Below are positions 26,423-50,932 of a stretch of 64,000 nt of DNA, piece after piece. The notes under the pieces are model-generated. The model saw nothing but the letters and a program-made list of their open reading frames with translations, had not been told where the DNA came from and made no database searches. How positions within the stretch are numbered: position 1 is the first letter of the stretch; each line of letters begins with the position of its first letter. The stretch comes from a bacterium (GTDB lineage Bacteria; Patescibacteriota; Minisyncoccia; Phycocordibacterales; Phycocordibacteraceae), in contig JAJZPB010000001.1 of NCBI GenBank assembly GCA_021811365.1, positions 32,312 through 96,311 of the forward strand, read 5' to 3'. The position numbers and the translations under genes were made by a program.

Positions 26423-26424
26423 CG

Positions 26425-30284: not shown

Positions 30285-30312
30285 CACTCGGGTCTGGTTA
30301 TCGTGCAGGAGA

Positions 30313-30342
30313 AAAGGCGGCCACAGGGGCCGCCTTTTTTGC
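30313..30342 (+). terminator. Rho-independent terminator after lysS
   Basis: aaggcggcc-acagg-ggccgcc followed by tttttt. Confidence 0.7.
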
Positions 30343-30348
30343 GCATCG

Positions 30349-31847: not shown

Positions 31848-32018
31848 GTGCTTCAAGTACACGTCGCGACGAAAAGCGCCTGATCACGGGCGTTTTTCTG
31901 TTGCGTGGGGATAACTTCATGGTGTAAACAGAAGGGAAGTGTCATATAATCCCATCAAGTGGGATGAAGTGGGAAGCGGAATGGTGGTCCGCTTCTCACT
32001 CCAGCCCACGAACCACCC

Positions 32019-32441: not shown

Positions 32442-32446
32442 AGAGT

Positions 32447-33400: not shown

Positions 33401-33704
33401 TGCTGCTTTCACGTCGCCTGCGCGCGCCCGGGCTTCGTTTTCTCCCATCGCGCTTTTAACGGGCCTTGTAGCAACGCTCGGCGTGGCGTACGTGGGGCTT
33501 ATCGCCGTTGTTATGGCGTACGCTGCCGTTACGGTACAGTTTTCCCAATCGGTGCGCAGCGACGAAGCGCAGGTCGCCGTTCTTGAGGGGCAGTACCTGT
33601 CGGCGATAGCGGGCATCAACAGCACCGACTACGCTGCGGCCGGGTATGCAAAGCCGATTGCTGAGGTATATGTGCCCGGCGCTCGGGCTACGGCGCTGCG
33701 GTAG
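33393..33704 (+). CDS. ftsL: FtsL-like cell division protein (single TM)
   Basis: 103 aa. A short cytoplasmic tail, one TM helix (LLTGLVATLGVAYVGLIAVVMAYAAV), and a coiled-coil-like periplasmic part. Position between rsmH and ftsI. 8-nt overlap with rsmH. Confidence 0.5.
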   Translation: MRNAAFTSPARARASFSPIALLTGLVATLGVAYVGLIAVVMAYAAVTVQFSQSVRSDEAQVAVLEGQYLSAIAGINSTDYAAAGYAKPIAEVYVPGARATALR

Positions 33705-33713
33705 ACTGCGTGC

Positions 33714-35447: not shown

Positions 35448-36724
35448 AGCAACTACTTAAAGCAATCGGAGCAAGCATTCTCGCGGTTTGCGCGCGGCTT
35501 GTCATTCGGCGCTATAAGCCGAAGATTGTCATGGTTACCGGCTCCGTCGGTAAAACCTCCACAAAGGACGCGGTGGCTGCGGTCCTCGCGGCGCGTTTTT
35601 TCGTTCGCAAGAGCGAGAAAAGCTTCAACAGCGAGTTTGGCGTGCCGTTCACGATTCTGGGCGTGGGGAACCCATGGGGCAAGCCGACCGCCTGGCTTGC
35701 AGTGCTTAAGAGCGCTTTTACGCTTCTCGTCCTCCCTAACCACTACCCCGCACTGCTCGTGCTTGAAGTGGGTGCAGACAGGCCCGGCGATCTTGAACGA
35801 ATACTACGTATCGCGACGCCGGACGCAGTTGTTTTAACGCGCTTGCCGGAAATCCCAGTCCATGTCGAGGCTTACGCATCGCCTGACGCGGTACGCGAAG
35901 AGGAGTCGCTGCCAGCCTATGCACTGTCGTCGGGAGGACCTCTTATCGTGAACGCCGACGACGAGTACGCGCTCGAGGTTGCGGCGCGCACGAGCGCGCG
36001 CGTTATCACCTACGGCGTGAGCGACGAGTCGCGGGTGCGCGTAAGCGCTACAGACTTTTACATAGAAGAAGGTGTAGTCGTTGGAATGCAGACGAAAGTG
36101 CAGGTGGGCGAAGAGGATGCAATCGTGACAGTGCGTGGATCGGTAGGGAAGGCGCAGGTGTTACCAGCCGCGGCGGCAATCGCTATAGCGACCACGTTTG
36201 ACATAGCTCTTCCCGAAGCGCTCGAGGCGCTGGCTGCGTATGAGCCGCCGCCCGGTCGCGGTCGTTTGTTCCGTGGGAAACGCGGCAGCGTCATTGTCGA
36301 TGACTCGTATAACGCGTCGCCGGCAGCCGTTGAGGAGGCGCTCACTACCCTGAAAGCCTTTCCAGGCGCGCGTCGCCGCATTGCTGTTCTTGGCGACATG
36401 CTTGAGCTCGGCCGCTATTCCGTGATGGAGCACGAGCGTCTCGGCGCGCTCGCCGCGGAGAGCTGTGATGTAGTGGTTAGTGTCGGCATTCGCGCGCGCG
36501 GCCTTGCCGCGGCAGCAATCAAGGCGGGCGCCCAGACCGAAACATTTGACGAGTCGAATCGCGCAGGGCTCGCGCTCGCCGATATTGTGCAGGAGGGCGA
36601 TGTCGTGTTGGTCAAGGGTTCGCAAGGGGTGCGTATGGAACGGGTCGTCGAACAGCTGCTCGCGGACTCCGCTGACCGCGCGCGCCTCGTGCGCCAGGAA
36701 AAAGAGTGGCGTAAGCGTAGGTAG
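35444..36724 (+). CDS. murF: UDP-N-acetylmuramoyl-tripeptide--D-alanyl-D-alanine ligase
   Basis: The Mur-ligase P-loop VMVTGSVGKTSTKD and a Mur ligase C-terminal domain (DDSYNASP). ATGA overlap with ftsI. Confidence 0.85.
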   Translation: MKQLLKAIGASILAVCARLVIRRYKPKIVMVTGSVGKTSTKDAVAAVLAARFFVRKSEKSFNSEFGVPFTILGVGNPWGKPTAWLAVLKSAFTLLVLPNHYPALLVLEVGADRPGDLERILRIATPDAVVLTRLPEIPVHVEAYASPDAVREEESLPAYALSSGGPLIVNADDEYALEVAARTSARVITYGVSDESRVRVSATDFYIEEGVVVGMQTKVQVGEEDAIVTVRGSVGKAQVLPAAAAIAIATTFDIALPEALEALAAYEPPPGRGRLFRGKRGSVIVDDSYNASPAAVEEALTTLKAFPGARRRIAVLGDMLELGRYSVMEHERLGALAAESCDVVVSVGIRARGLAAAAIKAGAQTETFDESNRAGLALADIVQEGDVVLVKGSQGVRMERVVEQLLADSADRARLVRQEKEWRKRR

Positions 36725-36743: not shown

Positions 36744-38519
36744 CTAGAGGCCGCGAACCCCGAGCTTTCGATATTCTTCGGACGAAAGGTCGAGGAAATT
36801 CTGGATTTGACTTTCAGAGTAGGATTGGTCCAGGTCTGATAGAGTCACTAGCTGAAAAGATGAAAGCGGGACAGGAGCTTTTTGCAAGAAAAATGAAAGA
36901 TGACCACGCACTACGCTTTCGTTTCCGGCCAGGTAAAAAAGGGCAGGGTACGACCGGCTCAGATACAGCCAAAACGGGTTGAAGGGCAGACTTTGTTTCT
37001 GCATCATCGCGTTAATGCCCGCAATAATTGAGTTCATGGCAATGGCCGTCTGGATTTGTTGATCGAAAAGAGCAGACTGGTCGTGATATAGCGCGATTCG
37101 CCGTTCAAGTGCGTACACGGTGTCCGGAGATGTCTGTCTCGCAAGAGACTCTTCTCCTGTTGCTGATAGGAGATTAGAAATGGTGCCTACATATTGCGAA
37201 ATAGCGTCTTCGGATATAAAAGGCGCGTTCGTGATTTCACTTTCCTCTGTGGCAGCGCGCTTTATCAGCGGACTCCTTTTTTGGAAAGCTTTGCCTAAAA
37301 AAAGCGGCCGTTGAGCAATGCTGTCGGCAAGTCTATAGAGCGATGCGACGCGTGCAGATTCTATGCCCGAGTCGGGGCATTCATAGAAGTTCGACACCCT
37401 TTGCCCAAGGAAAGATAGTCCGTGAGCTTGAAGGTCGGTATAAAAAGCGCTCGACGTTTTCTTGCGCAGGTCGTAAAAATACATGTTGTTAATAGATTCG
37501 AATTGAAAATCTGGCACAGGTGAATGTGCATCTCGGATCGTCCATAGGTACATATAAAAAGGACCTGTGGTAGGCACGCAATCACTTTTTGTAAGTGCCA
37601 CCACGCCGAGGCCCATAAATTGTTCTCCAAGGACGGTGGCGTTTGTTTTTTCCATCGATGTGAGTACCGATTCCACGTGTGTGACTGGTGGTGGTAAGGC
37701 GGCAAGAGTTGTCGAAACTCCTGAAAGGGAACTGGTTCGCGGGAGCAGGCTTTGCAGGGGGGTGCATGCAGTGTTGTTTCCCTGTAGACAGCTAAATCGT
37801 GCAAGCGCTTTTTGTTGGTCGTCTTCCGCACTAGCAGCCAGAGCTGATAAGCGCGCACCGAAAACGCCGCTCGTGGTGTACCCATTAGGGAACGTATATT
37901 CGTTGTTGGCGATGCTTTTACTGCCAAGCCCGTCGAGAGCGGAGGCGGTTTCGTTAAGTGCTGATTGATAGTGCGTCAGCGCAGTTTGCAGCGACGTATT
38001 GTAGAGGAGCGCGCCACTGTAGCTTGGGTGCGTGAGTAGTGCGATACGGTTTTTCTCAAGCTGTGGAAGCGTCTCGAGGAAGGCGATAGGATAAAAACTA
38101 TTCGCGAGTACCGTACGAATGCTGCTGGGGTAGGCCGCCGAGAGCGAATCGACGGATTGCCTGAGGGCCGCTATTGCGAGTGTCAACTTCGCAGGGTCCG
38201 TCCCCCCGAGAGCCATGATGGGATCAAGCCGATTTGCAATTGTAAAGTATGCAATCCGAAAAACCTTAGAAACGGTATTTGGGTTGGTGACTACTTTTCC
38301 GCCTGTTGCCACGACGCCATGACTGACTGAGTAGGTGGTGCTCCCGATGGTAATATCGGGCACAATAAACTGAGAAAATTGCCGACTAAACGCCGAGGAA
38401 TTTGAAGCGAATACCCCCTCTGCTTGAGCGTAATAAACAAGCAGACCTATTCCTATAAAGAGAAAAGCAGAAAGTAAGAAGAATAAAGTACCCCGATGTC
38501 TGTGGATAAGGGATTGCAT
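36744..38519 (-). CDS. Large N-anchored extracellular hypothetical protein (591 aa; start at internal ATG)
   Basis: Start chosen at MQSLIHRHRGTLFFLLSAFLFIGIGLLVYYAQA, a signal-anchor. Ser/Thr/Ala-rich, with no enzymatic motifs. Convergent with murF across the palindrome ttgctgggcccagcaa. Confidence 0.55.
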   Translation of the reverse strand: MQSLIHRHRGTLFFLLSAFLFIGIGLLVYYAQAEGVFASNSSAFSRQFSQFIVPDITIGSTTYSVSHGVVATGGKVVTNPNTVSKVFRIAYFTIANRLDPIMALGGTDPAKLTLAIAALRQSVDSLSAAYPSSIRTVLANSFYPIAFLETLPQLEKNRIALLTHPSYSGALLYNTSLQTALTHYQSALNETASALDGLGSKSIANNEYTFPNGYTTSGVFGARLSALAASAEDDQQKALARFSCLQGNNTACTPLQSLLPRTSSLSGVSTTLAALPPPVTHVESVLTSMEKTNATVLGEQFMGLGVVALTKSDCVPTTGPFYMYLWTIRDAHSPVPDFQFESINNMYFYDLRKKTSSAFYTDLQAHGLSFLGQRVSNFYECPDSGIESARVASLYRLADSIAQRPLFLGKAFQKRSPLIKRAATEESEITNAPFISEDAISQYVGTISNLLSATGEESLARQTSPDTVYALERRIALYHDQSALFDQQIQTAIAMNSIIAGINAMMQKQSLPFNPFWLYLSRSYPALFYLAGNESVVRGHLSFFLQKAPVPLSSFQLVTLSDLDQSYSESQIQNFLDLSSEEYRKLGVRGL

Positions 38520-38832
38520 GGGTAACCGCAATGAGAGTACAGTATTCCTATCAGATGTGTAAGCAGTATACTGCATTAAATTACTCCCACCATGCATCCA
38601 CGTAAATTTCCTTGGGTTCAAAAGTCGGCACTGTTCATGGCTGTGATAGCTTTTGGATCGGCGGTAGCAAGTGTCTTCGTGGTCGTTCATGAAAAGCCAG
38701 GAAGCGAGGTTGCGGTGGCCCAGGCGGCACACGCATGCGTCGCACCAATCGGGAATACGTCTCCAACGAACGTACGCACGGCAAATCAAAGAAAACAGCT
38801 CTTCGTGAGCTGCGCAGGGTTTTTAAACTGAA

Positions 38833-39951
38833 TCAAATAGCAGGGTCTCTTTTTAGTACGACCCTCTTCTTCCCATTCGAGGCAATAGAAGCTACCTTTC
38901 TCGCAACGAGCGGTACAAATATGCCGGCCTCTATGAGCTGACTCAGCGTACGAGTCTTCGTTACAAAAAGCGAATCAGCAAGATACTTTCCAATCTCCGT
39001 CTCAGTCGACGCGGCACTGCGGGGTACAAAATCAAAAACAGCTTTTCCAGATAGTTTTCCGTCGTGGAGAATTTCTCCAACGCGGAGCTGATACTCAACG
39101 AGTGTACCCGCGAGAGGCTCAAGAACTCGCTCGAGCTCTTCTCGCAAGAAAAGAGCTCCGAGAATCGGTACTATGTCAAAATCTTTGCGTCCGTAGAGTA
39201 GTAACGTAGGCTGTTTCCCACAAGGGCAAGGGTTTGTATCGAGCTTACCTAGGTCGCCAGTGCGGTAGTTTTCGAGTTCAGTCGTCGTAGCAATGATTTC
39301 TCCTACACCTTCCTCGTCTGGTTCTGCGATTGCTAAAACCGTCTCCGAGTCCTCGAGAAGGTGGTAGCGTTCCTCATTTTCTGTCTCCAAGCACTGAGCA
39401 GTGGGATAAATAACCTCCGAAAGGGTGTACCCGCCTTGTATGGTCGCGTCAGGAAATAATGCTCGAAGGTGTTTTTTTTGCGTCGAAGTGCAGAGCTCGG
39501 CCATGGTCTGTATCAGACGTATATTTTTTAGTACGGAGGAACTAGTTTTAAAAAGCGTCTCGCCGAAACGCAGCGCTCGAGACGGTGTGGCGCGTATTGT
39601 GTGCGGTTCATACTCGTTCATAATAAAAGGCAGATTCTTCTCTTCAAGGTCGCGTTCGTCAAGTGTTAGGTACATTTCTATTGAGCTTGATGTAAGCGCT
39701 CGGCGAATAACATGTAGTGCGGCGAGGTTATTTAGCGGTAAACGAACATGCCTACCGAGATTTGCAATCCATATGTCATGTGTTTCCCCGCCTGGTTTGT
39801 CAGGCCGAAACAACGCGACGAGCGTTGGAAGGCCGGTAGTCGTTCCGCTCGAGACGGCCATGTGGATGTGCTGAGTAGACGGATCTCCGGGCGTATATCG
39901 CTCGATGCCGTAAATGCGTTTCGCCAGGTCCTTTTTTGTTAAGTAGTGCAT
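38833..39951 (-). CDS. PaaK/F390-synthetase-like adenylate-forming enzyme (ANL superfamily), last gene of the ycaO operon
   Basis: The AMP-binding P-loop SSGTTTGLP, the YRTGDLGKLD motif, and a CPCG Zn-knuckle typical of PaaK/CapK-like ligases. Confidence 0.75.
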   Translation of the reverse strand: MHYLTKKDLAKRIYGIERYTPGDPSTQHIHMAVSSGTTTGLPTLVALFRPDKPGGETHDIWIANLGRHVRLPLNNLAALHVIRRALTSSSIEMYLTLDERDLEEKNLPFIMNEYEPHTIRATPSRALRFGETLFKTSSSVLKNIRLIQTMAELCTSTQKKHLRALFPDATIQGGYTLSEVIYPTAQCLETENEERYHLLEDSETVLAIAEPDEEGVGEIIATTTELENYRTGDLGKLDTNPCPCGKQPTLLLYGRKDFDIVPILGALFLREELERVLEPLAGTLVEYQLRVGEILHDGKLSGKAVFDFVPRSAASTETEIGKYLADSLFVTKTRTLSQLIEAGIFVPLVARKVASIASNGKKRVVLKRDPAI

Positions 39952-39958
39952 ATTCTTC

Positions 39959-40762
39959 CTATGAAGTAGACGCGAGTTCGAATGCGCGAGTCCCTTTGCA
40001 GGAGCAGTCCTTTTCGAGAAATCGCACCGTGAGTCCTGGACGGTAGTTAATAATTGGCGTCGGCAGCATGTGCGTGCGCGTGACCGTCAAGTCAGTGGTG
40101 GTATCAACAACGTAGTTTTCCGATTCGTGGAAAACGATCTTTTGCCCGGCAAGTGCTACGGGGCAGGCGTACGCGATTCCTCCCGTTTCCGGCAGTCCGA
40201 GCACGAGGTGTATCTGCGTGGAAGGGAAAGTGCGTATAAGCAAAGGAAGGTTAAAAGTGATATCGACAACAGTTACGTAAGCAGTTTTGGTTGTGTCGTA
40301 GTGACGCGCCAAGGCCGTAGCCGTTTTCTCTATAGTTGCCGAGTCTGCGACGATTGAGTCCACTTCGTACCGCTGTGCAAGCATACCGGTAATGTCCTCG
40401 TCTTTGTCGGCGATGATTGGCAAGATATTTCTGGTTGTACACCACAGTGCCTTCTCAAGACATTCGTGGATAGAAGCAAAGGCTACGAGAGGTCGATTGC
40501 CAAGATCCCCATACTCTTCTCGTCCAATATCCGATAGGTGTCGACCAATTAAAAAAGGCCTCTCGTTGTAGTAAGCGACTTTCGCTAGAAGGTTGTCTGT
40601 ACGATAGAGCCGACGAGCGAAGGGAGTATTTGCGTATTGTTCTCGTTTTAGCGGTGGGAGCTCATTACGGGGAGTCCGAGAGTTCTCAGTATTCCAGACA
40701 GAACGATAAAAGTCCGACGCAGTCTCTTCAAAGACAAGCCTTTCAATCGGTGTAGGACTCAT
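39959..40762 (-). CDS. Degenerate PaaK-like protein lacking the AMP P-loop
   Basis: Its C-terminal INYRPGLTVRF...DCSCKGT parallels NYRTGDL...CPCG of the neighbouring ligases, but there is no SSGTTG motif. 7-nt gap to the next gene. Confidence 0.35.
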   Translation of the reverse strand: MSPTPIERLVFEETASDFYRSVWNTENSRTPRNELPPLKREQYANTPFARRLYRTDNLLAKVAYYNERPFLIGRHLSDIGREEYGDLGNRPLVAFASIHECLEKALWCTTRNILPIIADKDEDITGMLAQRYEVDSIVADSATIEKTATALARHYDTTKTAYVTVVDITFNLPLLIRTFPSTQIHLVLGLPETGGIAYACPVALAGQKIVFHESENYVVDTTTDLTVTRTHMLPTPIINYRPGLTVRFLEKDCSCKGTRAFELASTS

Positions 40763-40773: not shown

Positions 40774-41607
40774 CTAACTAAGTTTTGCCGGAGCGTGCAA
40801 CCACTGAATTATCGAGTGCCGATTTTTTCGATTCGTCTGGAACGTATGCATGGAACGAAGGCTGGTCTGAAAAGCGAAAAGAGTGTTGTTTATGGGTGGG
40901 ACGACTTTCAGTCGTGTGGCGCGGTCCGCAGAATATACGCCAGTCTCGCCACCATCGCCCTCGTGCCACCCGTCATTCAGTAGATAGAAAAGTATCGCAA
41001 TAGCCTGGAATGGTGCGGCTCCTTGCTTTGAGCTGCGTGTCAGGTCAGTATAGCTTTGTGAAATGGAGGTGAGTGGCTTATACCCGATAACGCCATTCGA
41101 CAAGGGGACAGAGATCGCCGGGGACCGTTCAATATGGTCGTGGTGTACCGACCCGGTCTTATCGCCGGCTGGATGGTAATGAAATACCACCTTCGTTTCA
41201 GTAGTCGTACATTGATTGAATAACTTTGAGAAGAAAAGATTCCACTCAATGCTGTAAAAAATGCTGAGCGGATGCCTCGGATCTACGGTCGGTTGTGGCG
41301 AGTGCGTATAGCCGTCATACGCTATATCAAACGCATGAAAGCCGTCGAGAGTGTAGTCTCGCTTGTCGTGTAAGCCTCCTCGCATTGCTTCAGTGAAAAC
41401 AGAACAAAGGTTTTCATATGCCGTGGGCTTAAAAAAGTCAGGGATGACAACGTGCGGATATGGATCAGACATGATGCACACGTCGTATTTCCGCACGTTC
41501 GTAACCTCATCCAAATCAACGTTTTCGCGCGAGTGCAGGATTGACTTATGTACCTTGATTTGTGCCTTTCGGAAGCGGTCGTATAAGGTCATAGACGCAG
41601 TATACAA
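40774..41607 (-). CDS. Putative 2-oxoglutarate/Fe(II)-dependent oxygenase
   Basis: An HxD triad element in VHHDH, a distal His (SMHTF) ~90 aa later, and RHS (RxS) 10 aa after it. The pattern fits the 2OG-Fe(II) oxygenase facial triad plus 2OG-binding Arg. Confidence 0.5.
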   Translation of the reverse strand: MYTASMTLYDRFRKAQIKVHKSILHSRENVDLDEVTNVRKYDVCIMSDPYPHVVIPDFFKPTAYENLCSVFTEAMRGGLHDKRDYTLDGFHAFDIAYDGYTHSPQPTVDPRHPLSIFYSIEWNLFFSKLFNQCTTTETKVVFHYHPAGDKTGSVHHDHIERSPAISVPLSNGVIGYKPLTSISQSYTDLTRSSKQGAAPFQAIAILFYLLNDGWHEGDGGETGVYSADRATRLKVVPPINNTLFAFQTSLRSMHTFQTNRKNRHSIIQWLHAPAKLS

Positions 41608-41629: not shown

Positions 41630-42343
41630 CTAACAAAATTTGATAGAGTACACCGCTTGTTCGTTATTCGGGTCGATTGCGAGCATGTCTGAGACGATAC
41701 TGTCTTTGAAACCGGCCATAGGCCGTGCATTTATATTGTGCGCCGCCGCTAGTAGTAGCATGTTTTGCGCCACGTGACCTGCCTCAAGTAGGGCAAGGTT
41801 GTACGCAAAGTCGCCATATTTAGTAGCACTACGTTCCCACACAGCGGTGAAGACGATAGCAGCAGCAGCGGGACTAACCGCCTCGTCTTCAGGATAGAAA
41901 AATAGATCATTCACGCCGGCATGCACTGGCAGTTCCCAAAGACGCTCGAGGGCGTGAGTTTTCGGGTGGTAATGAAAGACGCTTGGAGAAAAGCTGTCAA
42001 CCTGACCGAACAGGTACGTTTCGATAGGATAGAGCGCTCCGCCGGAAGGGTAGGGACGCGTTTTGTCAGCGCGCATGCGTGCCGCCTGGAAAAGAAAACT
42101 CACGTCATTAAGTGAAAAAGATGTAAGGGGCGCATGTTTATTTTCCGAAGAGCGCAGAGAAAGTGCTTCGACAAGGCTCGCTGTGTTACTCACCGCACTT
42201 TCTGGAAGCGTAATCCGTTCCATGCGCGGATACTCTTTATGTTGCCAACGTATTGCGTCCTGCACAAGCGTCGCTGCTCCTCGACCAACTAGTAGTGCGT
42301 GGCGCAGGTCTGTATGTAGGCGAGAAATAAGGTGGCGTCTCAT
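41630..42343 (-). CDS. SagB-type (McbC-like) FMN-dependent dehydrogenase, nitroreductase fold
   Basis: The hallmark RPYPSGGALYPIETY motif of SagB/McbC azoline dehydrogenases. Start chosen 4 nt after the ycaO stop; the track ORF extends to 42406. Confidence 0.8.
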   Translation of the reverse strand: MRRHLISRLHTDLRHALLVGRGAATLVQDAIRWQHKEYPRMERITLPESAVSNTASLVEALSLRSSENKHAPLTSFSLNDVSFLFQAARMRADKTRPYPSGGALYPIETYLFGQVDSFSPSVFHYHPKTHALERLWELPVHAGVNDLFFYPEDEAVSPAAAAIVFTAVWERSATKYGDFAYNLALLEAGHVAQNMLLLAAAHNINARPMAGFKDSIVSDMLAIDPNNEQAVYSIKFC

Positions 42344-42347
42344 AGAG

Positions 42348-43835
42348 CTACGCAAATGGATGGGGCTCTTCACTGGAGTGCGCCTCCTTTTCAACAAGAT
42401 AGCCAAATTGCTTAGGTATTTCGTTCACGCGAAGGCCATCTACGGGACGATTTTTTTCCTTCAAGTAAAGCGGCTGTAGTTCAGGTATGATGACTCGTTC
42501 TAGATGCCATGGAGTTGGATTGCCTTCGGACTTCGTCAATGAAACAGAAACGCACTCATAGCCTTTCTCTCGACACCACGAGACAATGCGCGCAAGATGT
42601 TCTTCGTCAGTATCGGATTCCCAGGATTCGGCCGTAAGGTTTACGGTCGGCCCGGCTGTCAAAAAAGCAAGACCTTTAGCCCTATTGTGTTTTGTCCAGT
42701 AGCGGAGACGGTCAAAGTGGCCAATGTCGGCAATTTGCTCTTGAACTTCCTTGGGTGTTTCGTTTTCCATTGCGCGGATATCAGGTCGGATGCGTAGCGC
42801 TTCAAGTAGAGCGCCTTCTGCTGCTTGCGCAGGATCGCGATGCGCTTTTAGGCCGAGTGACATATTTGGCGTCATTCCGGATTCGTCTTCCAAGACTACA
42901 GCTAGCGCGTATGTCGGTGCGTCGGTCAGCATGCGAATCACCTGTGGTATCAGCCGGTAGCGCACGCAAAGCTTCATGAGTCGCGAAAGAGAAGCACTGC
43001 GGAGAGCAAGTTGTTCAACGTTTATACGAGGCAAGATGAGTCGATTGAGCCAGAGAATCATGTACGCATCGCGTTCGATAGCCTCAAGAGCTCCTTGGAG
43101 TATGGCCGCTTCCTTCGTCTTTCCACCCGCGCAGCCATTTGTATTTTGTTCCCGCAAAAGCGGCTCATTGAGCGAAGTTAGTACGCCTGGGTTCCCACTC
43201 ACGAGTTGCGCGGGAACCCATAACGGGCGTTTTGAGATGAGTGAGTCACCCCGAATCCACAGGAATTTTTGTTCCGGAGAGGACTTTTGCGGGAGTCCTA
43301 CAAGACGTTCGAGATCTAGCGCGGCAACCCTCTTGCGCCGCATACTCTCAGCCGTCGCTTTTTTTTGAGCGGCAAAGTAGTCGACCCGACTTGCCCACAC
43401 ATGCCGTTCCACTGCCTCGGCTAGCGCTGTAGTGAGTGCTACTCGCTCGTTGTCGAAAGAAATTCCCGAGGCTATAAGGTTCTCACGAACGGCGTAATCA
43501 CGAACACAAGAAGCCGACCAGATGTAGAGCGGCGGTTCATCTGGTAAGGACTCAGTGAGCTGTATTGTTTGGATGACGCCCGCAGCATGCAACGTCTCCG
43601 CAACCGAAAAAAGATCCAAAAGTTCCGGTTTTTGGAAGGGGATAACAGCTCTGTCATACACAACTCGAGCATGTAGACGACGCTCGAGAAAACGAATGAA
43701 TGAGGAAACAGCCTCCTTTTGGATGCTTGATACACCAGACCTACTCCATATTTCCTCGAATGGTATAGCGTCGAACATTTCATTTTTTATGCTAGCAGTG
43801 TTTAACGACGAGTCAATGTACAAAAAAGTACACAA
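42348..43835 (-). CDS. ycaO: YcaO-domain protein (ATP-dependent cyclodehydratase family)
   Basis: The three YcaO signatures occur in order: ALAEAVERHVW, NTNGCAGG (SNGxAAG-like) and ALEAIERDAYMILW (ATP/Mg-binding ExxERD). Confidence 0.85.
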   Translation of the reverse strand: MCTFLYIDSSLNTASIKNEMFDAIPFEEIWSRSGVSSIQKEAVSSFIRFLERRLHARVVYDRAVIPFQKPELLDLFSVAETLHAAGVIQTIQLTESLPDEPPLYIWSASCVRDYAVRENLIASGISFDNERVALTTALAEAVERHVWASRVDYFAAQKKATAESMRRKRVAALDLERLVGLPQKSSPEQKFLWIRGDSLISKRPLWVPAQLVSGNPGVLTSLNEPLLREQNTNGCAGGKTKEAAILQGALEAIERDAYMILWLNRLILPRINVEQLALRSASLSRLMKLCVRYRLIPQVIRMLTDAPTYALAVVLEDESGMTPNMSLGLKAHRDPAQAAEGALLEALRIRPDIRAMENETPKEVQEQIADIGHFDRLRYWTKHNRAKGLAFLTAGPTVNLTAESWESDTDEEHLARIVSWCREKGYECVSVSLTKSEGNPTPWHLERVIIPELQPLYLKEKNRPVDGLRVNEIPKQFGYLVEKEAHSSEEPHPFA

Positions 43836-43931
43836 TAGCGGTTATGAAGGTTATCCACAAAACTAACAGACACAGCGCGTCGCCAGACAGGCAGTCTGCT
43901 CTATACTAAGAATTAGTTATAATATTATTTT

Positions 43932-44222
43932 ATGGCAACGATTTTAAAAAAGAATATGCGAGCTGGGCATTCATTTCTCAAGGGGACAGGTTCGCTACTG
44001 CTAGCCGTAGTTGGATTTTTCATGATTTTTTTTGGACCCGGAACGGTGTCGACGGGGAAGTCCAACACGTTCTTGAGCATGATGGACTTCAACGTAGCTC
44101 ATGCGGATACGAATACCTGCGGCCAAACATGCTATACCACCTACGTTAAAGGTGGTGGCTCCTCTTCAAGCTATTGCACGTCGACTTGCACCGTTGGTGG
44201 TTCATCGTGCGCCTGTAGTTAA
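43932..44222 (+). CDS. Candidate RiPP precursor peptide with a Cys/Ser/Thr/Gly-rich C-terminal core
   Basis: 96-aa ORF divergent from ycaO across an AT-rich 96-bp promoter region (tatact, tataat). The C-terminus is TNTCGQTCYTTYVKGGGSSSSYCTSTCTVGGSSCACS. The N-terminus carries a hydrophobic signal/anchor-like stretch. Confidence 0.6.
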   Translation: MATILKKNMRAGHSFLKGTGSLLLAVVGFFMIFFGPGTVSTGKSNTFLSMMDFNVAHADTNTCGQTCYTTYVKGGGSSSSYCTSTCTVGGSSCACS

Positions 44223-44255: not shown

Positions 44256-45347
44256 ATGAGCGGCGTATATAATGGCAAGCGTATAATTTATGCTTCCGCA
44301 ATTATCGTTGCGGTGGCGTTGGTGATTGCGGCTGGAATTTTATTGTACGTACGTTACGAGCATCGTATACGGTTCAATCATCTTATTTTGCAGGCCGAGT
44401 CTTCTTATCATGAATATAACTATGATACTGCGATTACGGCTGCGTCAGATGCTATTTCATTTGCTCCAACAAGGGCTGACGCCGACCTAGCCAAATACTA
44501 TGTTGCCGCCTCGCTTTATAATAGAGGGAACAGTAAAGACACCGTCACTAGCATAACGCTTCTTAAGTCAATTATCGCTGACCCAGCAGCAAGCGCACAG
44601 CTCAAGAGTTCTGCCTATATCAGGCTCGGTTTGCTGTACTCCCCATCAGGAGTTAATAGTTCGCTCAACAAGCTGGTATTCAGCGGACCTCCGTACAGCG
44701 ATTATCTGGCGAGCGCCAAGGGGAACATGGGTAAAGCGACGCTATCGCTGTATGAGAAGGCAAATGAATTGTATCCATCGGCAGCGGCAAATTACGCCAT
44801 TGCAGCATCGCAAGCAATGGGGATTTACACGCAAGGGATAAACGTCAAGGACCCAACCCAGCTGCAGGTTGCCCAAGCGGTCCAAAGGACGGTTGCTAAC
44901 GGCGACGCGCTATTGGCGGCTGGATCGTCGACCCTCGCGCAACTGCCGCAACTTTACATGTTACGTTCTTTTGCACTCAGCACGGCTTCGTATTATGTAC
45001 CCGAAATATCCCCGCAAATTGTTGATAGTTCCTACGAACATGCGTTATCGCTCATGAACGCAGCCAGTACGAGTATATCCTACCTAAAGCTGACTACCGT
45101 CATGCTTAACTTGACTTATGCAGCCTCCCTAGTCGAAAGAGAACCCGGAGCCCAAAATACAAAAATTAGCAGCCTGCTTTCAGACTTTTTAAATGAGACG
45201 AACGCATTTCCGACTCTTCTCCCGCAAAATGTACTCGCGATTCGCGCTTATAAGCCAGGAACCCCTATTCTCGACGCGATTCCAAAACTTGCAAAACTCT
45301 ATCCACCCTTTGCTGCGTACTTAGTTCAAATAGGCTGGAATAAATAA
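44256..45347 (+). CDS. N-anchored membrane protein with helical repeat (TPR-like) ectodomain
   Basis: A TM helix IIYASAIIVAVALVIAAGILLYV, then a 330-aa Ala/Leu/Tyr-rich helical domain. Immediately downstream of the precursor gene. Confidence 0.5.
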   Translation: MSGVYNGKRIIYASAIIVAVALVIAAGILLYVRYEHRIRFNHLILQAESSYHEYNYDTAITAASDAISFAPTRADADLAKYYVAASLYNRGNSKDTVTSITLLKSIIADPAASAQLKSSAYIRLGLLYSPSGVNSSLNKLVFSGPPYSDYLASAKGNMGKATLSLYEKANELYPSAAANYAIAASQAMGIYTQGINVKDPTQLQVAQAVQRTVANGDALLAAGSSTLAQLPQLYMLRSFALSTASYYVPEISPQIVDSSYEHALSLMNAASTSISYLKLTTVMLNLTYAASLVEREPGAQNTKISSLLSDFLNETNAFPTLLPQNVLAIRAYKPGTPILDAIPKLAKLYPPFAAYLVQIGWNK

Positions 45348-45370: not shown

Positions 45371-46816
45371 CTACAGGAGAGGAACAAACATTCTCATTTT
45401 TCCCTCAGATCCCGCTCCCCATAGTGCTGGGTATTCAAATATGATGGATAGTTCGGTACCGATGTGTTTATAAAGTTCATTAGAAAAGCGACTCTCAAAA
45501 GATTGTTTATCACCGTGCCGTAACTTAACTCGAATTACCAACTGGCCAAGCGTCGGTTGCATGATTTGATAAAACTCGATTTCGTCAAAAAAAAGTGGAA
45601 GCAGAAAGCGATTTATCTGGCGAAAAGGCGCTATTTTTCCGCTCGGGAAGCGAATGAAGTCCATCTGTTTTCCTGAGAAGGCAAGAAGAGGCAGCGTGCG
45701 GCCGCAAGGACACTTTTCAGGTACGATTCGACCACGATCACCGATGTGATACCTGAGAAGCGGAAGGGCGCGATTCTCAAGGGAGGTTAGTGTGATCAGT
45801 CCCTCTTCGCCGTCGGGAAGGCGTCTACCTTGTTCATCAGTTATTTCTAGAAACAGGCGCTCGGCGTGAACGTGGTAATGATGCCGCAGCTTTGGACACT
45901 CGATAGCTATCTGCCCGACCTCGGTACTTCCGTAGGTTGCTACCACAGGACAACCGAGGACTTTTTCCGCATACTCACGCGAATCGTCGTCAAGACGCTG
46001 GCCTCCGGCTACGACTAGTTGAAATGGTAGTTTTTGACGCGACTCAGCGAGCTTTTTTGCAAATAGGAGAAGATTTGTTGGGTAAATGTACAATACTCGA
46101 TACCGTCCCGTCGTTATCTGGTCAAGTAGATTTTGAAATGCCTGATCAGCATTAGTTTCAACAGGACTCCAGTTACAGGCCACAGACGGCTGTGCCGTGG
46201 TTGGTCCGGTAAAGCTAGCTATGAATGGACGTCTCCCATCTCTTTTTGGTGAAATGCCGTGCCATACGAGGATGCGATGAAAATATGAGGCGGACTCGAC
46301 GAAGCTTGTATTTCTGTCGCCGCCCCACTCGAACGGTGCGCCGGTCGTACCAGAGGTGCGAAACAACACAAGACGTTCCCGGTCTTTAAATGCCGGCGCA
46401 AGAAGTTCCGCTCGAGAAGTATTCGTAAACGACTGTTTGGAAACTGGGGGTAAGCGCTCCAAAACAGACAGAGCCGTCAGTGACTCCCTTTGTATTCCTG
46501 CGCCCTCCAGCCGGTCTCGCCACCAGGGAATGGTTTCAGCAATTCGTAGTATCTTTTTGAGCCGAAGCAGTTGCAGCTCGTGCATGAGAGACGGGTCGGC
46601 GTATTCGGTTTCGGGCAAAAGGTTTCGATAAGCATTGGTGACGAATTCGTGCCGATACCCATACAGGGAGCGGTAGGGTTGCAAAAATTCCGCTACTGCC
46701 CGCACCACCATGCGTTTTTTTTCGTTTCGGGTGGGGTTAAAAATTTTACGTTTCATCTGCGACTTCGCGTAAGTGTAATACCAGAAACGTGTCGTGTACA
46801 ATGTAAGCACCTGCAC
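45371..46816 (-). CDS. PaaK/F390-synthetase-like adenylate-forming enzyme (second copy)
   Basis: The P-loop RTSGTTGAPFE, YGSTE, YHIGDRGRI and CPCGR motifs. The true start may be an internal Met (M21 or M36). Confidence 0.75.
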   Translation of the reverse strand: MQVLTLYTTRFWYYTYAKSQMKRKIFNPTRNEKKRMVVRAVAEFLQPYRSLYGYRHEFVTNAYRNLLPETEYADPSLMHELQLLRLKKILRIAETIPWWRDRLEGAGIQRESLTALSVLERLPPVSKQSFTNTSRAELLAPAFKDRERLVLFRTSGTTGAPFEWGGDRNTSFVESASYFHRILVWHGISPKRDGRRPFIASFTGPTTAQPSVACNWSPVETNADQAFQNLLDQITTGRYRVLYIYPTNLLLFAKKLAESRQKLPFQLVVAGGQRLDDDSREYAEKVLGCPVVATYGSTEVGQIAIECPKLRHHYHVHAERLFLEITDEQGRRLPDGEEGLITLTSLENRALPLLRYHIGDRGRIVPEKCPCGRTLPLLAFSGKQMDFIRFPSGKIAPFRQINRFLLPLFFDEIEFYQIMQPTLGQLVIRVKLRHGDKQSFESRFSNELYKHIGTELSIIFEYPALWGAGSEGKMRMFVPLL

Positions 46817-46818: not shown

Positions 46819-47613
46819 ATGAGACGCGAATGCAAAGAGCCAAAGTTTTCATATGTCATCTGTACTACTCCGCGTTCAGGTAGCACCCTCCTTACCACGA
46901 CGCTTGGGCAAACCGGGGTGGCAGGGAAACCTGATGAATCAATCACGCTTTCTTTTCGAGAGGAGGTGCGCCGCGCCAAACAGCTTGGTACGCAAGACTT
47001 TCGTGAGTATATCGAGAGAGCAATTACTGCCTCCACAACGGAAAATGGCGTTTTCGGAACCAAACTCCACGCGTTTCAGACGATGGCATTTCTTACGAGG
47101 ATTTCCGAGTTTCGGAGTGAGCCCATTGTTTCTCTACAGGCCGCTTTTAATAGGCAATTTCCGAACACGCGTTATATTTTTCTGACCCGTGGCGAAAAGG
47201 TTAAACAAGCGATATCGTATTACCGAGCGCTCATGACCGACGAGTGGCACCGCTTGTCGAAAACGGGAGAAATCGAACGTGTCGCTGGTCCAATTTCGTT
47301 TGACCAGTACGGTATAAAAAAAAGTCTTGCGTTTATCGAACGCTCTGACGCGTATTGGGAGAGCTACTTTAAAGCGCATAAGCTTTCGCCACTGCGATTG
47401 ACTTACGAAGAGCTGGTTGGGTCGTATGAGAGCTCGATACGGCGCGTTCTTGACTTCCTCGGACTTCCTGCCGATGTCTCTGTACCGGGGCAGGTTGTAC
47501 AAAAAATGGGTGACGAACGCGCTATCGCCTGGGAAAAGGAGTTTTTGTCGCTCGAAAAAGTCGCCCCTGCAACTGTGTCAATCCTTAGCGACATATTGCT
47601 TGCGCCGTACTAG
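46819..47613 (+). CDS. Stf0-like sulfotransferase (PAPS-dependent)
   Basis: An N-terminal 5'-PSB loop YVICTTPRSGSTLL and a later RGEKVKQAISYYRA (3'-PB-like) region. Confidence 0.7.
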   Translation: MRRECKEPKFSYVICTTPRSGSTLLTTTLGQTGVAGKPDESITLSFREEVRRAKQLGTQDFREYIERAITASTTENGVFGTKLHAFQTMAFLTRISEFRSEPIVSLQAAFNRQFPNTRYIFLTRGEKVKQAISYYRALMTDEWHRLSKTGEIERVAGPISFDQYGIKKSLAFIERSDAYWESYFKAHKLSPLRLTYEELVGSYESSIRRVLDFLGLPADVSVPGQVVQKMGDERAIAWEKEFLSLEKVAPATVSILSDILLAPY

Positions 47614-47689: not shown

Positions 47690-48529
47690 TTGACCATGTG
47701 GACAGAACGTCGTAACCATAAATATATAGCGAGCGCTGTCTTATTTGTTGTCGCGGTAATGGTTGCCTGGGTGGCTACAGTCGTTCCGTCAACAAGCATA
47801 TATCGCACGCTGGTACGGACGGTGTGGAGTCATGGCTATCCTGGAATAGCTTACGAACTTAATCAGACCGACCCGACGCTCGCCATGGCCGTCGGTAACT
47901 ACTATTTCGGCGGCGGGCAGTACAATCTTACAAGGGCGATAGACTCTTTTCAGCTTGCTGTTCGGTTGGATCCAACCATACTTTGGGGACACTACCAGCT
48001 TGCGCGCATCTATTTCGTGCAGTCACACTTTGATCGGGCGCTGAGCGAGATTAACGCGGAACTTGTAGCGAATCCCGCAAACCTCCGCTCCCTGTACGTT
48101 AGGGGGCTTATCTACATGTATCGTGGACGCACGGGTGACTTGAGTCTTGCCGCAACTGATTTCGAGCATTTTATTCCTTGGGCGCCTACTGAGTGGGCTG
48201 GCTACAATGACTTAGCATTCGTCCTTGCGGAGGAAGGGGAGTATGCGGCATCGGAAAACATATTGCAGGAAGCTTTTATCCACGTTCCAAATGCTAATAA
48301 GAATCCATGGATTTGGAACGGTATTGGTCTCGACCAGTTAAATGAGCATCACTATGCTGCCGCAAAGAGCTCTTTCAAACAGGCGGCGATGTTCGCAAAG
48401 ACGCTTACGCTCACCGACTGGCAAAACGCCTACTCCGCTGACAATCCCGCCGCTGACGCCTCCAGCATCGCGACGTTCCAGAAAGCGATTGCGGAAAATT
48501 TGCAGATAGCAACCGCAAAAATGAATTGA
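47690..48529 (+). CDS. N-anchored TPR-repeat protein
   Basis: A TM helix, then degenerate 34-aa TPR-like repeats (LAVRLDPTILWGHYQLARIYFVQSHFDRALSEINAEL...). Confidence 0.55.
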   Translation: MTMWTERRNHKYIASAVLFVVAVMVAWVATVVPSTSIYRTLVRTVWSHGYPGIAYELNQTDPTLAMAVGNYYFGGGQYNLTRAIDSFQLAVRLDPTILWGHYQLARIYFVQSHFDRALSEINAELVANPANLRSLYVRGLIYMYRGRTGDLSLAATDFEHFIPWAPTEWAGYNDLAFVLAEEGEYAASENILQEAFIHVPNANKNPWIWNGIGLDQLNEHHYAAAKSSFKQAAMFAKTLTLTDWQNAYSADNPAADASSIATFQKAIAENLQIATAKMN

Positions 48530-48643: not shown

Positions 48644-50704
48644 ATGACTCGCGCACACCGTAAGCTGCTTCGCAAAGCTGCGCATTCTCTGAGGAAGAAA
48701 AAACGAGCTATCCATACAGCTTCTCGCATTGTTGCTGGCAGGTTTAAAAAATCTAGTCAACTGCTTGTTGCGGGAGGAGTGCTTGCGATTTTCTTTGGAG
48801 TGGCCATAGTGAGCTACTCCGGAACGTCTTCACTCGGTAAGGTAGCTGTTCCCGCACCAGCAGCGCTTACTCCCAGCTCCGTTGGGTTGGGAAAGGGGGT
48901 CCCCGCATGTGCTAGCGCTCAAGGTCCAACATGCACATCAAATGGGACTGCGTCCGTGACGATTAATTGGAATTTTCTCAGCGATTCAGGTCAATGCCAG
49001 TTTGTAATAATGGCTCCTGACGCTGGCATTCCTTCACCGTATCTTGATGTACCTTATTCAAGTGGGGCTTGTTATGCGGGGTGGGGCGGGTGTGTTTACC
49101 AGGAGCTTCCATGTGTCGGGAGCCACACGTTTACTGGCTTGCAACGAAACACGAGCTATGCGTACTGGTTCCACATTCATCATGCGTGGAATTGGAATAC
49201 TGACCCCAGTACGGACCCTTCAAATACCTACGGAGAAAAGAATTCTCTTACGGTGCCCAATTGTACTGCTTCTAACTACGGTCAGTCCTGCACCTCAACA
49301 GCAAACTCTTGCGGTCAAACAAACTCGGGTACATATGACGTCAATGGCAACTGCACCGCAAGCACACCACCGAATCCTGGGAATTTAGGTCAGTCCTGCG
49401 CCTCCTCAGCTAACGCGTGTGGCCAGACGAGCGGAGGCACCTACCAATGCAACGGATCTTGTTCTGCAAGCGCACCACCTAACTCAAGTTGTCCTCAACC
49501 TGCAGATGTCAGCAGTATTTCAGCTTCCTGCAATTCGACAGGTAATCTAGTGGTTTTTTCTTGGCCCGCAGTTTCCGGAGCGAATATATACCAGATCCAG
49601 TACTATTCAGCGAATGGTTCCTGCTCATCTGGATGGGCACTCTATACAGACGGAACAACCTGCTACAAAGATATTGCAGGTACTTCTGCAGCGGCTTCTG
49701 TTACGCCGGGGCAAAGTTCATATGCCTGGGTGAATGCCGGTAACACGAACACTGGCCAGTGGGCGAACTGGAGTACTCAGCCGAAGACAAGCTTCACCTG
49801 CCAATCCCCAACCCCCACTGTCACCTGGTTAGGGAGCCAGGGCTGCGTGCTTCCCAACAATAATTCCGGTTGCAACCTTACGGCTCACTGGACTGCCTCG
49901 AATCTGCCACCGGGCAACGGGCTGGTAGATTTACAGATAACGGGAGTTCCCCCGGTTTCTTACAATAAAACCTTCACAGGCTTACCGCCGACCGACCCTC
50001 AGTACCTTGTGACGCAAGCAGGTAAATACATCTTTACCCTGTTTACGGACAATAATGGGACTCCGGGGACGCAAATCGGGACAACGGCGTCGATGGCAGT
50101 GTGTCCGTTTGGTTATACGCTCGATACAACGAATGAAGTTTGTGTCCCGCCTCCTCTGCCAACCGTCGCGTTCTATCCGAGTCCAAGCACAATCGACAGC
50201 GGACAGTCAACGACTCTTTACTGGAGCTCAACGAACGCCTCGTCTTGCTCTGAAGAGCCGGGCACGAGCGGTTTCAGTACGGGCGCGGGTTCTCCTGTCA
50301 AAGGCAGTACATCCACCGGCACACTCACCACCACTACGAACTATGGCATTACTTGCACGGGTCCCGGTGGCTCAACAATTGGCCACGCTACCGTCACCGT
50401 GCTGCAGCCCACCGTTAGCATCTCTGCCGCTCCGACGCGCGTAGTATCCGGCGGCTCAACGGTTGTCTCCTGGGACGCCACCAACGTCGACACCTGCTCG
50501 ATCAGCAGAAACGGTCAGCCCTGGCCTACCGGTGGAAGTACGTTTACGGCAAACAGTAGTCGTCAGGTGACTGGAAACAAGACAGATACTATTACCTCCG
50601 ACACAACCTACATGATTACCTGCACGAATAATGCGCATACAGCAACTTCCGCCGTCTCCGCGACTCAGGTTGTAAGCGTTGTGCCGGGCTACGCTAACTT
50701 CTAG
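48644..50704 (+). CDS. Giant N-anchored Cys-rich extracellular protein (686 aa) with beta-rich repeat modules
   Basis: A highly basic N-tail, one TM helix, then >25 Cys in repeated Cxx(Q/N)(T)xxGTY/CT(S/A)S(T/A)PPN modules and Ig/FN3-like Ser/Thr-rich segments. Confidence 0.6.
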   Translation: MTRAHRKLLRKAAHSLRKKKRAIHTASRIVAGRFKKSSQLLVAGGVLAIFFGVAIVSYSGTSSLGKVAVPAPAALTPSSVGLGKGVPACASAQGPTCTSNGTASVTINWNFLSDSGQCQFVIMAPDAGIPSPYLDVPYSSGACYAGWGGCVYQELPCVGSHTFTGLQRNTSYAYWFHIHHAWNWNTDPSTDPSNTYGEKNSLTVPNCTASNYGQSCTSTANSCGQTNSGTYDVNGNCTASTPPNPGNLGQSCASSANACGQTSGGTYQCNGSCSASAPPNSSCPQPADVSSISASCNSTGNLVVFSWPAVSGANIYQIQYYSANGSCSSGWALYTDGTTCYKDIAGTSAAASVTPGQSSYAWVNAGNTNTGQWANWSTQPKTSFTCQSPTPTVTWLGSQGCVLPNNNSGCNLTAHWTASNLPPGNGLVDLQITGVPPVSYNKTFTGLPPTDPQYLVTQAGKYIFTLFTDNNGTPGTQIGTTASMAVCPFGYTLDTTNEVCVPPPLPTVAFYPSPSTIDSGQSTTLYWSSTNASSCSEEPGTSGFSTGAGSPVKGSTSTGTLTTTTNYGITCTGPGGSTIGHATVTVLQPTVSISAAPTRVVSGGSTVVSWDATNVDTCSISRNGQPWPTGGSTFTANSSRQVTGNKTDTITSDTTYMITCTNNAHTATSAVSATQVVSVVPGYANF

Positions 50705-50780: not shown

Positions 50781-50852
50781 GGCCCTATCGTCTAACGGCT
50801 AGGACAGCGCCCTCTCACGGCGCAAATCGGGGTTCGATCCCCCGTGGGGTCA
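50781..50852 (+). tRNA. tRNA-Glu (anticodon CTC)
   Basis: The cloverleaf parallels E. coli tRNA-Glu: acceptor ggcccta/tggggtc, D-arm gtc-taacggcta-ggac, anticodon stem gcgcc/ggcgc with loop ctCTCac, and T-arm cgggg-ttcgatc-ccccg. No encoded CCA. Confidence 0.75.
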
Positions 50853-50932
50853 CAGGTAGAGGTTTGTCATCAGTAAATTTGCCGTATAGCATTATAAGAA
50901 AGGGCTCCGCACGTTGCGGAGCCCGTGCGCTA

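Follow-up and report, generated by a model that had tools for sequence, protein, structure and literature searches.

A 64,000-nucleotide stretch of DNA from a patescibacterium (Minisyncoccia, Phycocordibacterales, Phycocordibacteraceae; GenBank assembly GCA_021811365.1, contig JAJZPB010000001.1, forward-strand positions 32,312 to 96,311), which we call the window and number from its first nucleotide, carries a small gene whose product resembles the precursor of a peptide made on the ribosome and modified after translation (a RiPP), with a signal- or anchor-like N-terminus. The gene lies at 43932..44222 on the + strand and encodes 96 amino acids plus a stop codon, as delimited by the open reading frame (ORF) and its homologues; the ORF reads exactly as the initial annotation had quoted it. 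It is unannotated in the source record: the metagenome contig of origin (JGI Ga0136806_1013256, 233 kb) has no gene call here, and the exact 96-aa peptide has no entry in the protein collection searched. Divergent to it, on the − strand, are the genes of a stand-alone YcaO cyclodehydratase (476 aa, 42348..43778; Pfam PF02624, 6.1e-42) and of a SagB-family FMN dehydrogenase (41630..42406; Pfam Nitroreductase, 7.5e-13). The start of the latter is uncertain, and its ORF overlaps the 3′ end of the YcaO gene.

The n-region of the peptide, M1-S21 (43932..43994, +), holds four Lys/Arg and no Asp/Glu, giving a net charge of +4. It leads into an h-region, L22-F34 (LLLAVVGFFMIFF; 43995..44033, +), which is 13 aa long (hydrophobic helix 13-17 aa), has a mean Kyte-Doolittle value of 2.98 and contains a nearly invariant glycine, G28, and a G-F motif. 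A polar spacer of 21 aa, G35-V55 (GPGTVSTGKSNTFLSMMDFNV; 44034..44096, +), which is a putative pro-region, separates the h-region from a candidate cleavage site, A56-H57-A58/D59 (44097..44108, +; the slash marks the position of the cut). The core that follows, D59-S96 (44106..44219, +), comprises 38 residues, including 6 Cys, 16 Ser/Thr and a single Lys, and is hypervariable when compared with the closest relative, L020 (related loci are cited by L numbers). An AlphaFold2 model built from a 30-sequence alignment predicted one helix, residues 12-34, with a predicted local distance difference test (pLDDT) score of up to 92, and coil for the remainder.

A single-sequence search of a word-indexed database with the 96-aa peptide gave no match, and relatives were reached via the YcaO neighbour and then with a peptide profile. 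YcaO homologues that are 26-49% identical were found in one genome locus, from a Candidatus Paceibacterota metagenome-assembled genome, and in 15 metagenome loci. Nine such loci, with seven distinct peptides, carry a small ORF of the same layout upstream of YcaO on the opposite strand, and the layout recurs divergently upstream of YcaO in every related locus in which that region is present and was read. At L007 the contig end cuts the peptide at “GIA”; at L008, L009 and L012 the region upstream of YcaO is missing or too short for a precursor gene. The peptide profile then retrieved 31 relatives from the word-indexed database, and HMMER, run exhaustively over 1.84 billion cluster representatives, returned 299 matches at E<=1e-3 (55 at E<=1e-10), nearly all of 70-125 aa and spanning the full profile length. 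The family thus defined amounts to about 300 clusters at 50% identity; the figures on its anatomy come from 161 of the 162 sequences analysed unless another sample is given. A YcaO search yielded 115 clusters, assigned, where named, to Paceibacterota, Minisyncoccia, Kaiserbacteria or the “Patescibacteria group”, and the peptide family is apparently confined to the Candidate Phyla Radiation (CPR)/Patescibacteria. Its member closest to the window is the peptide of L020, MTTITKNIKAGHSFLKGAGSLVLVVVGFFVILFGLGTGSIGKSNTFFSVLSPNTALAD/TAVWTYCQVSPSACYSCGACS, whose YcaO is 74% identical to that of the window.

The same architecture runs through the family: an h-region followed by an [AVST]-x-[AG]/[DE] motif was present in 161 of 162 sequences. 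The n-region has a net charge of +2 to +6 in the curated set. The h-region measures 16.8±2.7 aa; its glycine, equivalent to G28, is invariant in alignment A3 and nearly invariant in alignment A7, and the G-F motif occurs in 92 of 125 sequences. The polar spacer measures 18.3±4.4 aa. At the candidate site, position −3 is A in 136 sequences, V in 14, S in 8 and T in 3; position −2 varies, being H in 121 sequences and Y in 19, with N, Q, L, K and others in the rest; position −1 is A in 152 and G in 9; and position +1 is D in 152 and E in 9. Position +2 is A, V or T, and +3 is P in 117. Cores consist of 34% Gly, 21% Ser plus Thr and 9% Cys (125 sequences), and their 5999 residues include only 40 Lys/Arg vs 971 Asp/Glu (16%). 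A sub-type marked by AxAD-T and a core that is rich in Thr, Tyr and Cys but poor in Asp comprises the peptides of the window and of L020. Two loci whose YcaO is 26% identical to that of the window carry other forms. L016 (6213-6830, +) encodes a basic n-region, an h-region, a spacer, ALA/SD and a Lys/Arg-free core of about 130 aa rich in Cys, Gly and Thr, and its precursor gene lies downstream of SagB. In L015 (4958-5125, +), the leader is soluble and conventional, and the Gly/Ser/Cys core is rich in Lys.

On this evidence, the layout goes well beyond what chance would produce, and the gene is very probably a genuine precursor with a conserved signal- or anchor-like N-terminus. The initial annotation had proposed such an N-terminus on a YcaO substrate, and the proposal holds, with the layout being family-wide and the hydrophobic part 73% identical in L020. 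It had also placed this N-terminus where a classical leader would stand. The signal-like part of that description is sound; plain replacement of the leader is not, because a conserved spacer of 12-27 aa and the AxA/D motif precede the core. This stretch between the h-region and the core could be a pro-region or a recognition sequence.

The selective constraint on the peptide is uneven. Between the window and L020, codons 1-38 differ at proportions of 0.72 for synonymous (pS) and 0.13 for nonsynonymous (pN) sites, giving a nonsynonymous-to-synonymous rate ratio (dN/dS) of 0.06, with synonymous sites near saturation; the spacer and the core, by comparison, have dN/dS values of 0.41 and 0.38. The hydrophobic N-terminus is hence the most constrained part of the peptide in this comparison. 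The leader as a whole is 67% identical, and the cores could not be aligned.

These values bear on where translation begins. ATG codons at 44022 and 44079 would allow the precursor to start at an internal methionine (M31 or M50) with a short conventional leader, leaving the upstream part untranslated or accidental, and the initial annotation had offered such starts (MIFFGPG... or MMDFNVAHAD...) as an alternative. We reject an internal start because these methionines are unconserved, because the part upstream of them is under the strongest purifying selection and because a −10-like box is positioned for a transcript that begins at M1; we consider it scarcely credible. In L020, the positions of M9, M31, M50 and M51 of the window are occupied by I, V, V and L, and 128 of 154 relatives have no Met within the 16 residues before AxA (26 of 154 have one). 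In the alignment of homologues, the conserved unit includes the upstream hydrophobic part, the opposite of the conserved unit starting at MMDFNV... that the initial annotation had set against its own proposal.

The −10-like box of the window, TATAAT (43918..43923, +), ends 8 nt before the ATG and begins 14 nt ahead of it. In seven loci a −10-like hexamer (TATAAT, TATGAT, TATACT or TACTAT) begins 12 nt ahead of the start. Such a hexamer was present in 8 of the 13 loci examined, and two more have CATAAT at that position (10 of 13); taking the window together with its equivalents in L001-L007, L010, L014 and L020, it ends 6-8 nt before the precursor start. A scan for the sigma-70 consensus did not list TATAAT at 43918 because it has no good −35 element, and no Shine-Dalgarno sequence was visible by eye in the short strings upstream of the precursor starts. 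The spacing of the box to M1 across loci therefore suggests a leaderless or near-leaderless precursor mRNA beginning at M1. The precursor start codon is GTG in L004 and L010.

The YcaO protein begins with MFDAIPF, at 43778, and ten homologues start at a conserved M-[ILF]-[IFL]-D. The mechanically called ORF is over-extended, starting at a TTG at 43835, which is why it has no exact database entry, and the source annotation is shorter still (437 aa). Residues E121, E124, R125, E232, E235 and R236, of the ATP-binding ExxER/ExxERD motifs, are invariant in 85 sequences. The C-terminus, ...EPHPFA (PHPF[A/C] in the family, with P472, H473 and P474 invariant or nearly so), has a PxPx rather than a full PxPxP form, and we count it as the Pro-rich C-terminus of azoline-forming YcaOs. 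The best NCBIfam family is TIGR03604 (SagD type), at 179.4 bits and thus below the cut-off of 219.25, indicating a divergent clade. The AlphaFold2 model of the protein (pLDDT 94.3) matched LynD best in a Foldseek search (4v1v; E 6e-22; 464 aligned columns), followed by MusD, methanogen YcaOs, TruD, E. coli YcaO and McbD, and a profile search of the PDB matched only YcaO domains. SagB scores 96.3 bits against TIGR03605, above the cut-off of 78.4, and adjoins YcaO in 13 loci. Next to these enzymes lies a peptide with a conserved leader and a variable core rich in Cys, Ser and Thr, as expected of precursors of linear azol(in)e-containing peptides (LAPs) and thiazole/oxazole-modified microcins (TOMMs). 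By most of its enzyme-side features the cluster would be classed as LAP/TOMM-like, and it falls short at the SagD-model cut-off, the RiPP recognition element (RRE) partner and the soluble leader.

The pairing of peptide and enzymes bears on a different explanation, by which the peptide would be an ordinary low-complexity envelope protein, and the substrate of YcaO and SagB would be a different molecule. Many relatives do have Asp/Gly-rich cores with no or one Cys, as such a protein might. However, the precursor gene, together with the genes of two anchored proteins (a TPR protein and a 363-aa protein, described below), is strictly divergent to YcaO-SagB in about 15 loci with YcaO identities of 37-74%, a conserved leader combined with a hypervariable Cys/Ser/Thr core is a hallmark of RiPPs, and no alternative substrate gene is conserved nearby. 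We regard this explanation as very unlikely.

No E1-like, Ocin-ThiF-like or RRE partner was found among the cluster proteins by Pfam or NCBIfam, or in YcaO by PDB profile or fold searches, although a partner that cannot be recognised as such is possible. We considered an RRE fused in the N-terminus of YcaO, where residues 1-109 are unmatched by Pfam and NCBIfam, and rejected it: an alignment of about 460 columns to LynD, in a Foldseek output that gives no per-residue ranges, corresponds to one YcaO domain alone, so we read the N-terminus as part of the YcaO fold and the protein as a stand-alone YcaO with no fused RRE. The lack of a detected partner, together with the sequence-specific conservation of the helix, would be accounted for if the hydrophobic helix were a cytoplasmic RiPP leader that docks on the RRE-less YcaO or on another cluster protein, with no membrane targeting. 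However, in known RiPP systems it is a short strand of the leader that binds the RRE, and no long apolar helix. The combination of a helix of about 16 aa (mean Kyte-Doolittle value 2-3.4), a positive n-region and a Lys/Arg-free acidic tail is a textbook membrane-topology signature, and the conserved partners on the same strand appear extracytoplasmic, yet no exporter was found. We think a purely cytoplasmic helix improbable; docking on an enzyme would, in any case, also be compatible with export.

Instead, we favour, with a probability of roughly 0.5, the reading that the peptide is the pre-pro-peptide of a linear azol(in)e RiPP system, modified in the cytoplasm, routed through Sec/YidC and then either cleaved at AxA/D or tethered. 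Its first part, a basic n-region and a helix of about 16 aa, would serve as a Sec-type signal peptide or signal anchor; the second would be the polar spacer of about 20 aa that ends in AxA/D; and the third would be the Lys/Arg-poor core, rich in Cys/Ser/Thr in the window and in Gly/Ser/Asp/Cys in relatives. Cytoplasmic, ATP-dependent YcaO and FMN-dependent SagB would convert Cys, Ser and Thr of the core into azol(in)es before or during a late targeting step, because a chain of 96 aa would be almost fully translated before its hydrophobic segment emerged from the ribosome. The signal-like N-terminus would then insert N-in/C-out via Sec/YidC in place of a dedicated ABC exporter, a topology that the positive n-region and the tail, acidic and free of Lys/Arg, would fit. 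Outside the cell, the peptide would be released at AxA/D by signal peptidase I or another protease, or would stay tethered, and the co-transcribed anchored proteins, one with helical repeats and one with TPRs, would handle it on the outer face. For the window, further tailoring of the Tyr/Ser/Thr-rich core by a 2-oxoglutarate (2OG) oxygenase, a sulfotransferase and PaaK-like ligases is possible. We infer export and cleavage from the peptide sequence and its gene context. Consistent with export, L015, which has a soluble leader, has a Lys-rich core instead.

The N-terminus has several features of a Sec signal cleaved by signal peptidase I. The n-region is positive in the window and throughout the curated set, and the h-region is shorter than a transmembrane (TM) span, at 13 aa in the window and 16.8 aa on average in the family, compared with TM anchors of 20.6 aa on average, which are also more hydrophobic, in the neighbouring 363-aa family. 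Over 19 residues, a simple Hessa sum gave +0.77 for the h-region vs roughly −2 for the neighbouring true anchors. Small residues at −3 and −1 define the specificity of signal peptidase I, and this pattern, with a free −2, was observed in 161 sequences. Tat, lipoprotein, prepilin and sortase signals were excluded by regular-expression counts over 159 family sequences (Tat S/T-R-R-x-F-L-K, 0; prepilin G/FTLIE, 0; C-terminal LPXTG, 0; lipobox Cys, 1). A proximal signal-peptidase site just after the h-region (STG/K43 in the window and in L020; ASA/K in some relatives) was considered as well and rejected, being unconserved across the family.

Several observations weigh against cleavage and export in this form. 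In canonical substrates, signal peptidase I cuts about 3-9 residues past the h-region; with a spacer of 21 aa in the window and about 18 aa in the family in place of a short c-region, cleavage at AxA by this enzyme would therefore be atypical. The nearly invariant glycine, the G-F motif and the very low dN/dS of the h-region are unlike generic signal peptides, and such sequence-specific conservation suggests that the helix makes a specific contact, whether within the membrane or to an enzyme. For both of these reasons, we keep an uncleaved anchor and a recognition helix under consideration; these readings and export are compatible with one another. In addition, 16 of 125 cores contain no Cys at all, and because many relatives have Cys-poor or Cys-free cores, the chemistry may differ from that of classical thiazole-rich LAPs.

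The same observations could be read as those of an uncleaved type II signal anchor that displays an azole-modified acidic tail, contacts the anchored partner proteins helix to helix and uses AxA/D-A-P as a recognition motif. The conserved glycine and G-F motif, the strong purifying selection on the h-region and a spacer that exceeds the canonical signal-peptidase distance would all be consistent with such an anchor, and the operon partners are all single-pass anchored proteins. There is also a parallel in the TIGR04222 proteins, whose Ser/Gly/Cys tails have been proposed as MNIO substrates (PMC12452194). However, the h-region is short and less hydrophobic than the anchors of its neighbours, and small residues at −3 and −1 with a free −2 resemble a peptidase site. 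We consider an uncleaved anchor a realistic but distinctly less likely alternative to the exported pre-pro-peptide. We propose with similar reserve that the product might be an azole-decorated, acidic Gly/Ser-rich tail that is surface-tethered or partner-bound, rather than a diffusible antibiotic, and that the precursor and the three anchored proteins might form a CPR-specific envelope module.

Downstream of the precursor gene, the window carries a series of genes for anchored and putative tailoring proteins. After 33 nt follows a helical protein of 363 aa (44256..45347, +), anchored in the membrane by an N-terminal TM segment of 23 aa; a protein of this family occupies the same position in every related locus that extends past the precursor. 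A 10-sequence alignment of the family contained no invariant His, Asp, Ser, Cys or Glu; we therefore rejected a catalytic role and treat the protein as a scaffold. In L014, another paralogue of the family is encoded on the opposite side of the YcaO cluster (7960-9240, −). Next comes a PaaK/CapK-like AMP-dependent ligase of 481 aa (45371..46816, −; Pfam AMP-binding; NF045666, 2e-38), with a homologue in L019, followed by a Stf0-type sulfotransferase, a putative tailoring enzyme (46819..47613, +; Pfam 7e-38). A sulfotransferase also adjoins a 47%-identical YcaO in L021. That locus (135-5692; same NCBI assembly as L020) comprises the YcaO, a 160-aa ORF, the sulfotransferase and a second YcaO-domain protein of 819 aa, and its precursor region is removed by the contig end. 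A membrane-anchored TPR protein (47690..48529, +; Pfam TPR) has homologues in L001-L003, L011, L014 and L016-L019. The last gene of the series encodes an N-terminally anchored Cys-rich surface protein of 686 aa (48644..50704, +) with no Pfam family. It contains many Cys-containing segments rich in Asn, Gly, Ser and Thr, and its last approximately 90 aa are homologous, by blastp, to same-position proteins in L001, L002, L014, L017, L018 and L019.

On the other side, beyond SagB, lie a 2OG-Fe(II) oxygenase (40774..41607, −; Pfam 1.3e-7), a putative tailoring enzyme with a weak match to YhhC-like peptide oxygenases that is absent from the other loci, and two window-specific ORFs of 372 and 267 aa (38833..40762, −), which are distant relatives of the PaaK/CapK adenylate-forming enzymes. 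The window's PaaK/CapK-like paralogues number three (481, 372 and 267 aa), and a CxCG motif is clearly common to the two larger ones. The oxygenase, sulfotransferase and PaaK-like genes, together with the Tyr/Ser/Thr-rich core, hint at tailoring by hydroxylation, sulfation or acylation that is absent from the main clade of related loci.

Comparison by blastp and gene tables gave a shared gene order, of which some loci show only part: a 154-aa protein, an anchored Cys-rich protein, the anchored TPR protein, an anchored protein of 363-381 aa and the precursor, divergent to YcaO and SagB. Loci of the main clade have additional genes that the window does not (L001 12137-15613; L017 345-5701; L018; L019): a fusion of a phosphoribosyltransferase (PRTase) and a PQQ beta-propeller, a protein of 211-243 aa and a protein of 367-370 aa that contains an SGGxDS motif. 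Some of these loci also encode a protein of about 455 aa. The fusion (538-557 aa) has an N-terminus that looks phosphoribosyltransferase-like by eye and a PQQ-type beta-propeller. The SGGxDS motif is PP-loop-like, and the protein of about 455 aa occurs with an ORF of 64-79 aa in L007, L017 and L019. Apart from the PQQ repeats, these extra proteins matched no Pfam family. Family searches found no ABC transporter, no protease or peptidase and no E1/ThiF/RRE family in the window cluster or in L017-L019.

The intergenic region between the divergent genes contains a TTATCCACA motif (43851..43859, +), conserved in related loci, which equals the DnaA-box consensus and occurs in the variants TATCCACAC and TTATCCCCG. 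One copy per locus was found in the YcaO/precursor intergenic region wherever that region is present, 28-73 nt from the starts (L002 3965-3973, L004 2737-2745, L006 2130-2138, L010 1906-1914, L017 7940-7948, L019 7718-7726 and L020 388-396); 0.21 chance copies are expected in the window. TTATCCACA may be an operator for the divergent promoters. On the YcaO side, a promoter-like site ends 10 nt upstream of 43778; it combines TTGACT, a 16-nt spacer and TAGCAT, and includes TG. A second exact TTATCCACA, at 38501-38509 (−), falls in or near the 5′ part of a 681-aa ORF (36744-38789) and is possibly due to chance. Further out, a dcw-like cell-wall block with two penicillin-binding protein transpeptidases, MraW and a MurF-like ligase precedes the cluster (26224-36724), and a tRNA-Glu(CTC) gene (50781-50853, +) lies just past it. 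With these flanks, the cluster therefore sits in the core chromosome and not within an obvious mobile element.

YcaO-nitroreductase clusters are already known from the CPR: Sharrar et al. (2020) reported 110 LAP clusters of this kind across a further 93 CPR genomes, of which 51 were Parcubacteria, and a signal or TM feature goes unmentioned there (PMC7298704). The window cluster shares a Parcubacteria-type host with these clusters (PMC7298704). With the LAP/TOMM systems of microcin B17 (McbABCD), streptolysin S (SagABCD), plantazolicin and phazolicin it shares a YcaO with ATP motifs and a Pro-rich C-terminus, a SagB, and an adjacent small gene with a conserved N-terminus and a hypervariable Gly/Ser/Cys/Thr core. 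Unlike in these systems, the leader consists of a signal- or anchor-like segment, a spacer and AxA/D rather than a soluble recognition helix, the cluster has no detected E1-like/RRE component (C or F protein), ABC exporter or leader protease, and cores of the family contain hardly any Lys/Arg, most of those in relatives being Asp-rich.

Among bacterial RiPP precursors, Sec signals are described as rare or “highly unusual”, and they are linked to MNIO enzymes in bufferins, oxazolins and chryseobasins (PMC11626156, PMC12452194); bufferins also demonstrate that heterocycle-bearing RiPPs can pass through Sec (PMC11626156). Like bufferins and oxazolins, the window peptide has a putative N-terminal Sec-type signal on a ribosomal precursor and no dedicated exporter (PMC11626156, PMC12452194), and Cys heterocycles formed in the cytoplasm before Sec export would be a further likeness, predicted for the window peptide from its genes. 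However, bufferins are made by an MNIO with a DUF2063 partner, in different phyla, in place of YcaO and SagB, and they have a canonical cleavage site with a folded core directly after the signal, whereas the window family has an 18-aa spacer and a disordered core. Since no MNIO (DUF692) or DUF2063 Pfam family was found in the window cluster or in L017-L019, we regard bufferins as a functional analogue only. TIGR04222 proteins likewise have an N-terminal part embedded in the membrane and, in addition, an unstructured Ser/Gly/Cys tail that is predicted to be extracytoplasmic and modified; unlike the family described here, which has a single helix, 70-120 aa and a YcaO neighbour, they are multi-pass, 70-643 aa long and MNIO-associated (PMC12452194). 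A further likeness, in being small, with a hydrophobic N-terminus and a Gly/Ser-rich remainder, is to the YxzE-like putative bacteriocins of Bacillus (PF25184). We rejected membership in that family: two relatives gave weak full-length matches (P0019, 26.1 bits; P0015, 19 bits) below the cut-off of 40 bits, and the window peptide was unmatched. To our knowledge, YxzE has no known association with YcaO. Our literature search, whose coverage was incomplete, found no published YcaO substrate with a Sec-signal or TM leader, and a signal-type leader on a YcaO-class precursor would appear not to have been described before.

Precursors of the YcaO/TOMM class are assumed to carry a soluble leader that is read by an RRE-containing partner and to exit through a dedicated ABC exporter. 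The family described here departs from all three expectations jointly, in that its leader is of signal type and neither an RRE partner nor an exporter was detected, and raises the biochemical question of how an RRE-less YcaO recognises its substrate. If our reading is correct, the Sec-routed RiPP strategy, shown so far only for MNIO-made bufferins, would extend to YcaO chemistry, and the order n-h-spacer-AxA/DAP would provide a genome-mining rule for peptides that gene callers and RiPP tools overlook. If the peptide instead forms a surface-displayed tail, it would set the first precedent for YcaO modification of a protein segment that is exported or displayed on the surface, where it might bind metal or help these episymbionts to attach to a host. 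Should the exported pre-pro-peptide be borne out, these minimal genomes would make a specialised surface or secreted product, and their retention of the cluster would imply that it has an important role.

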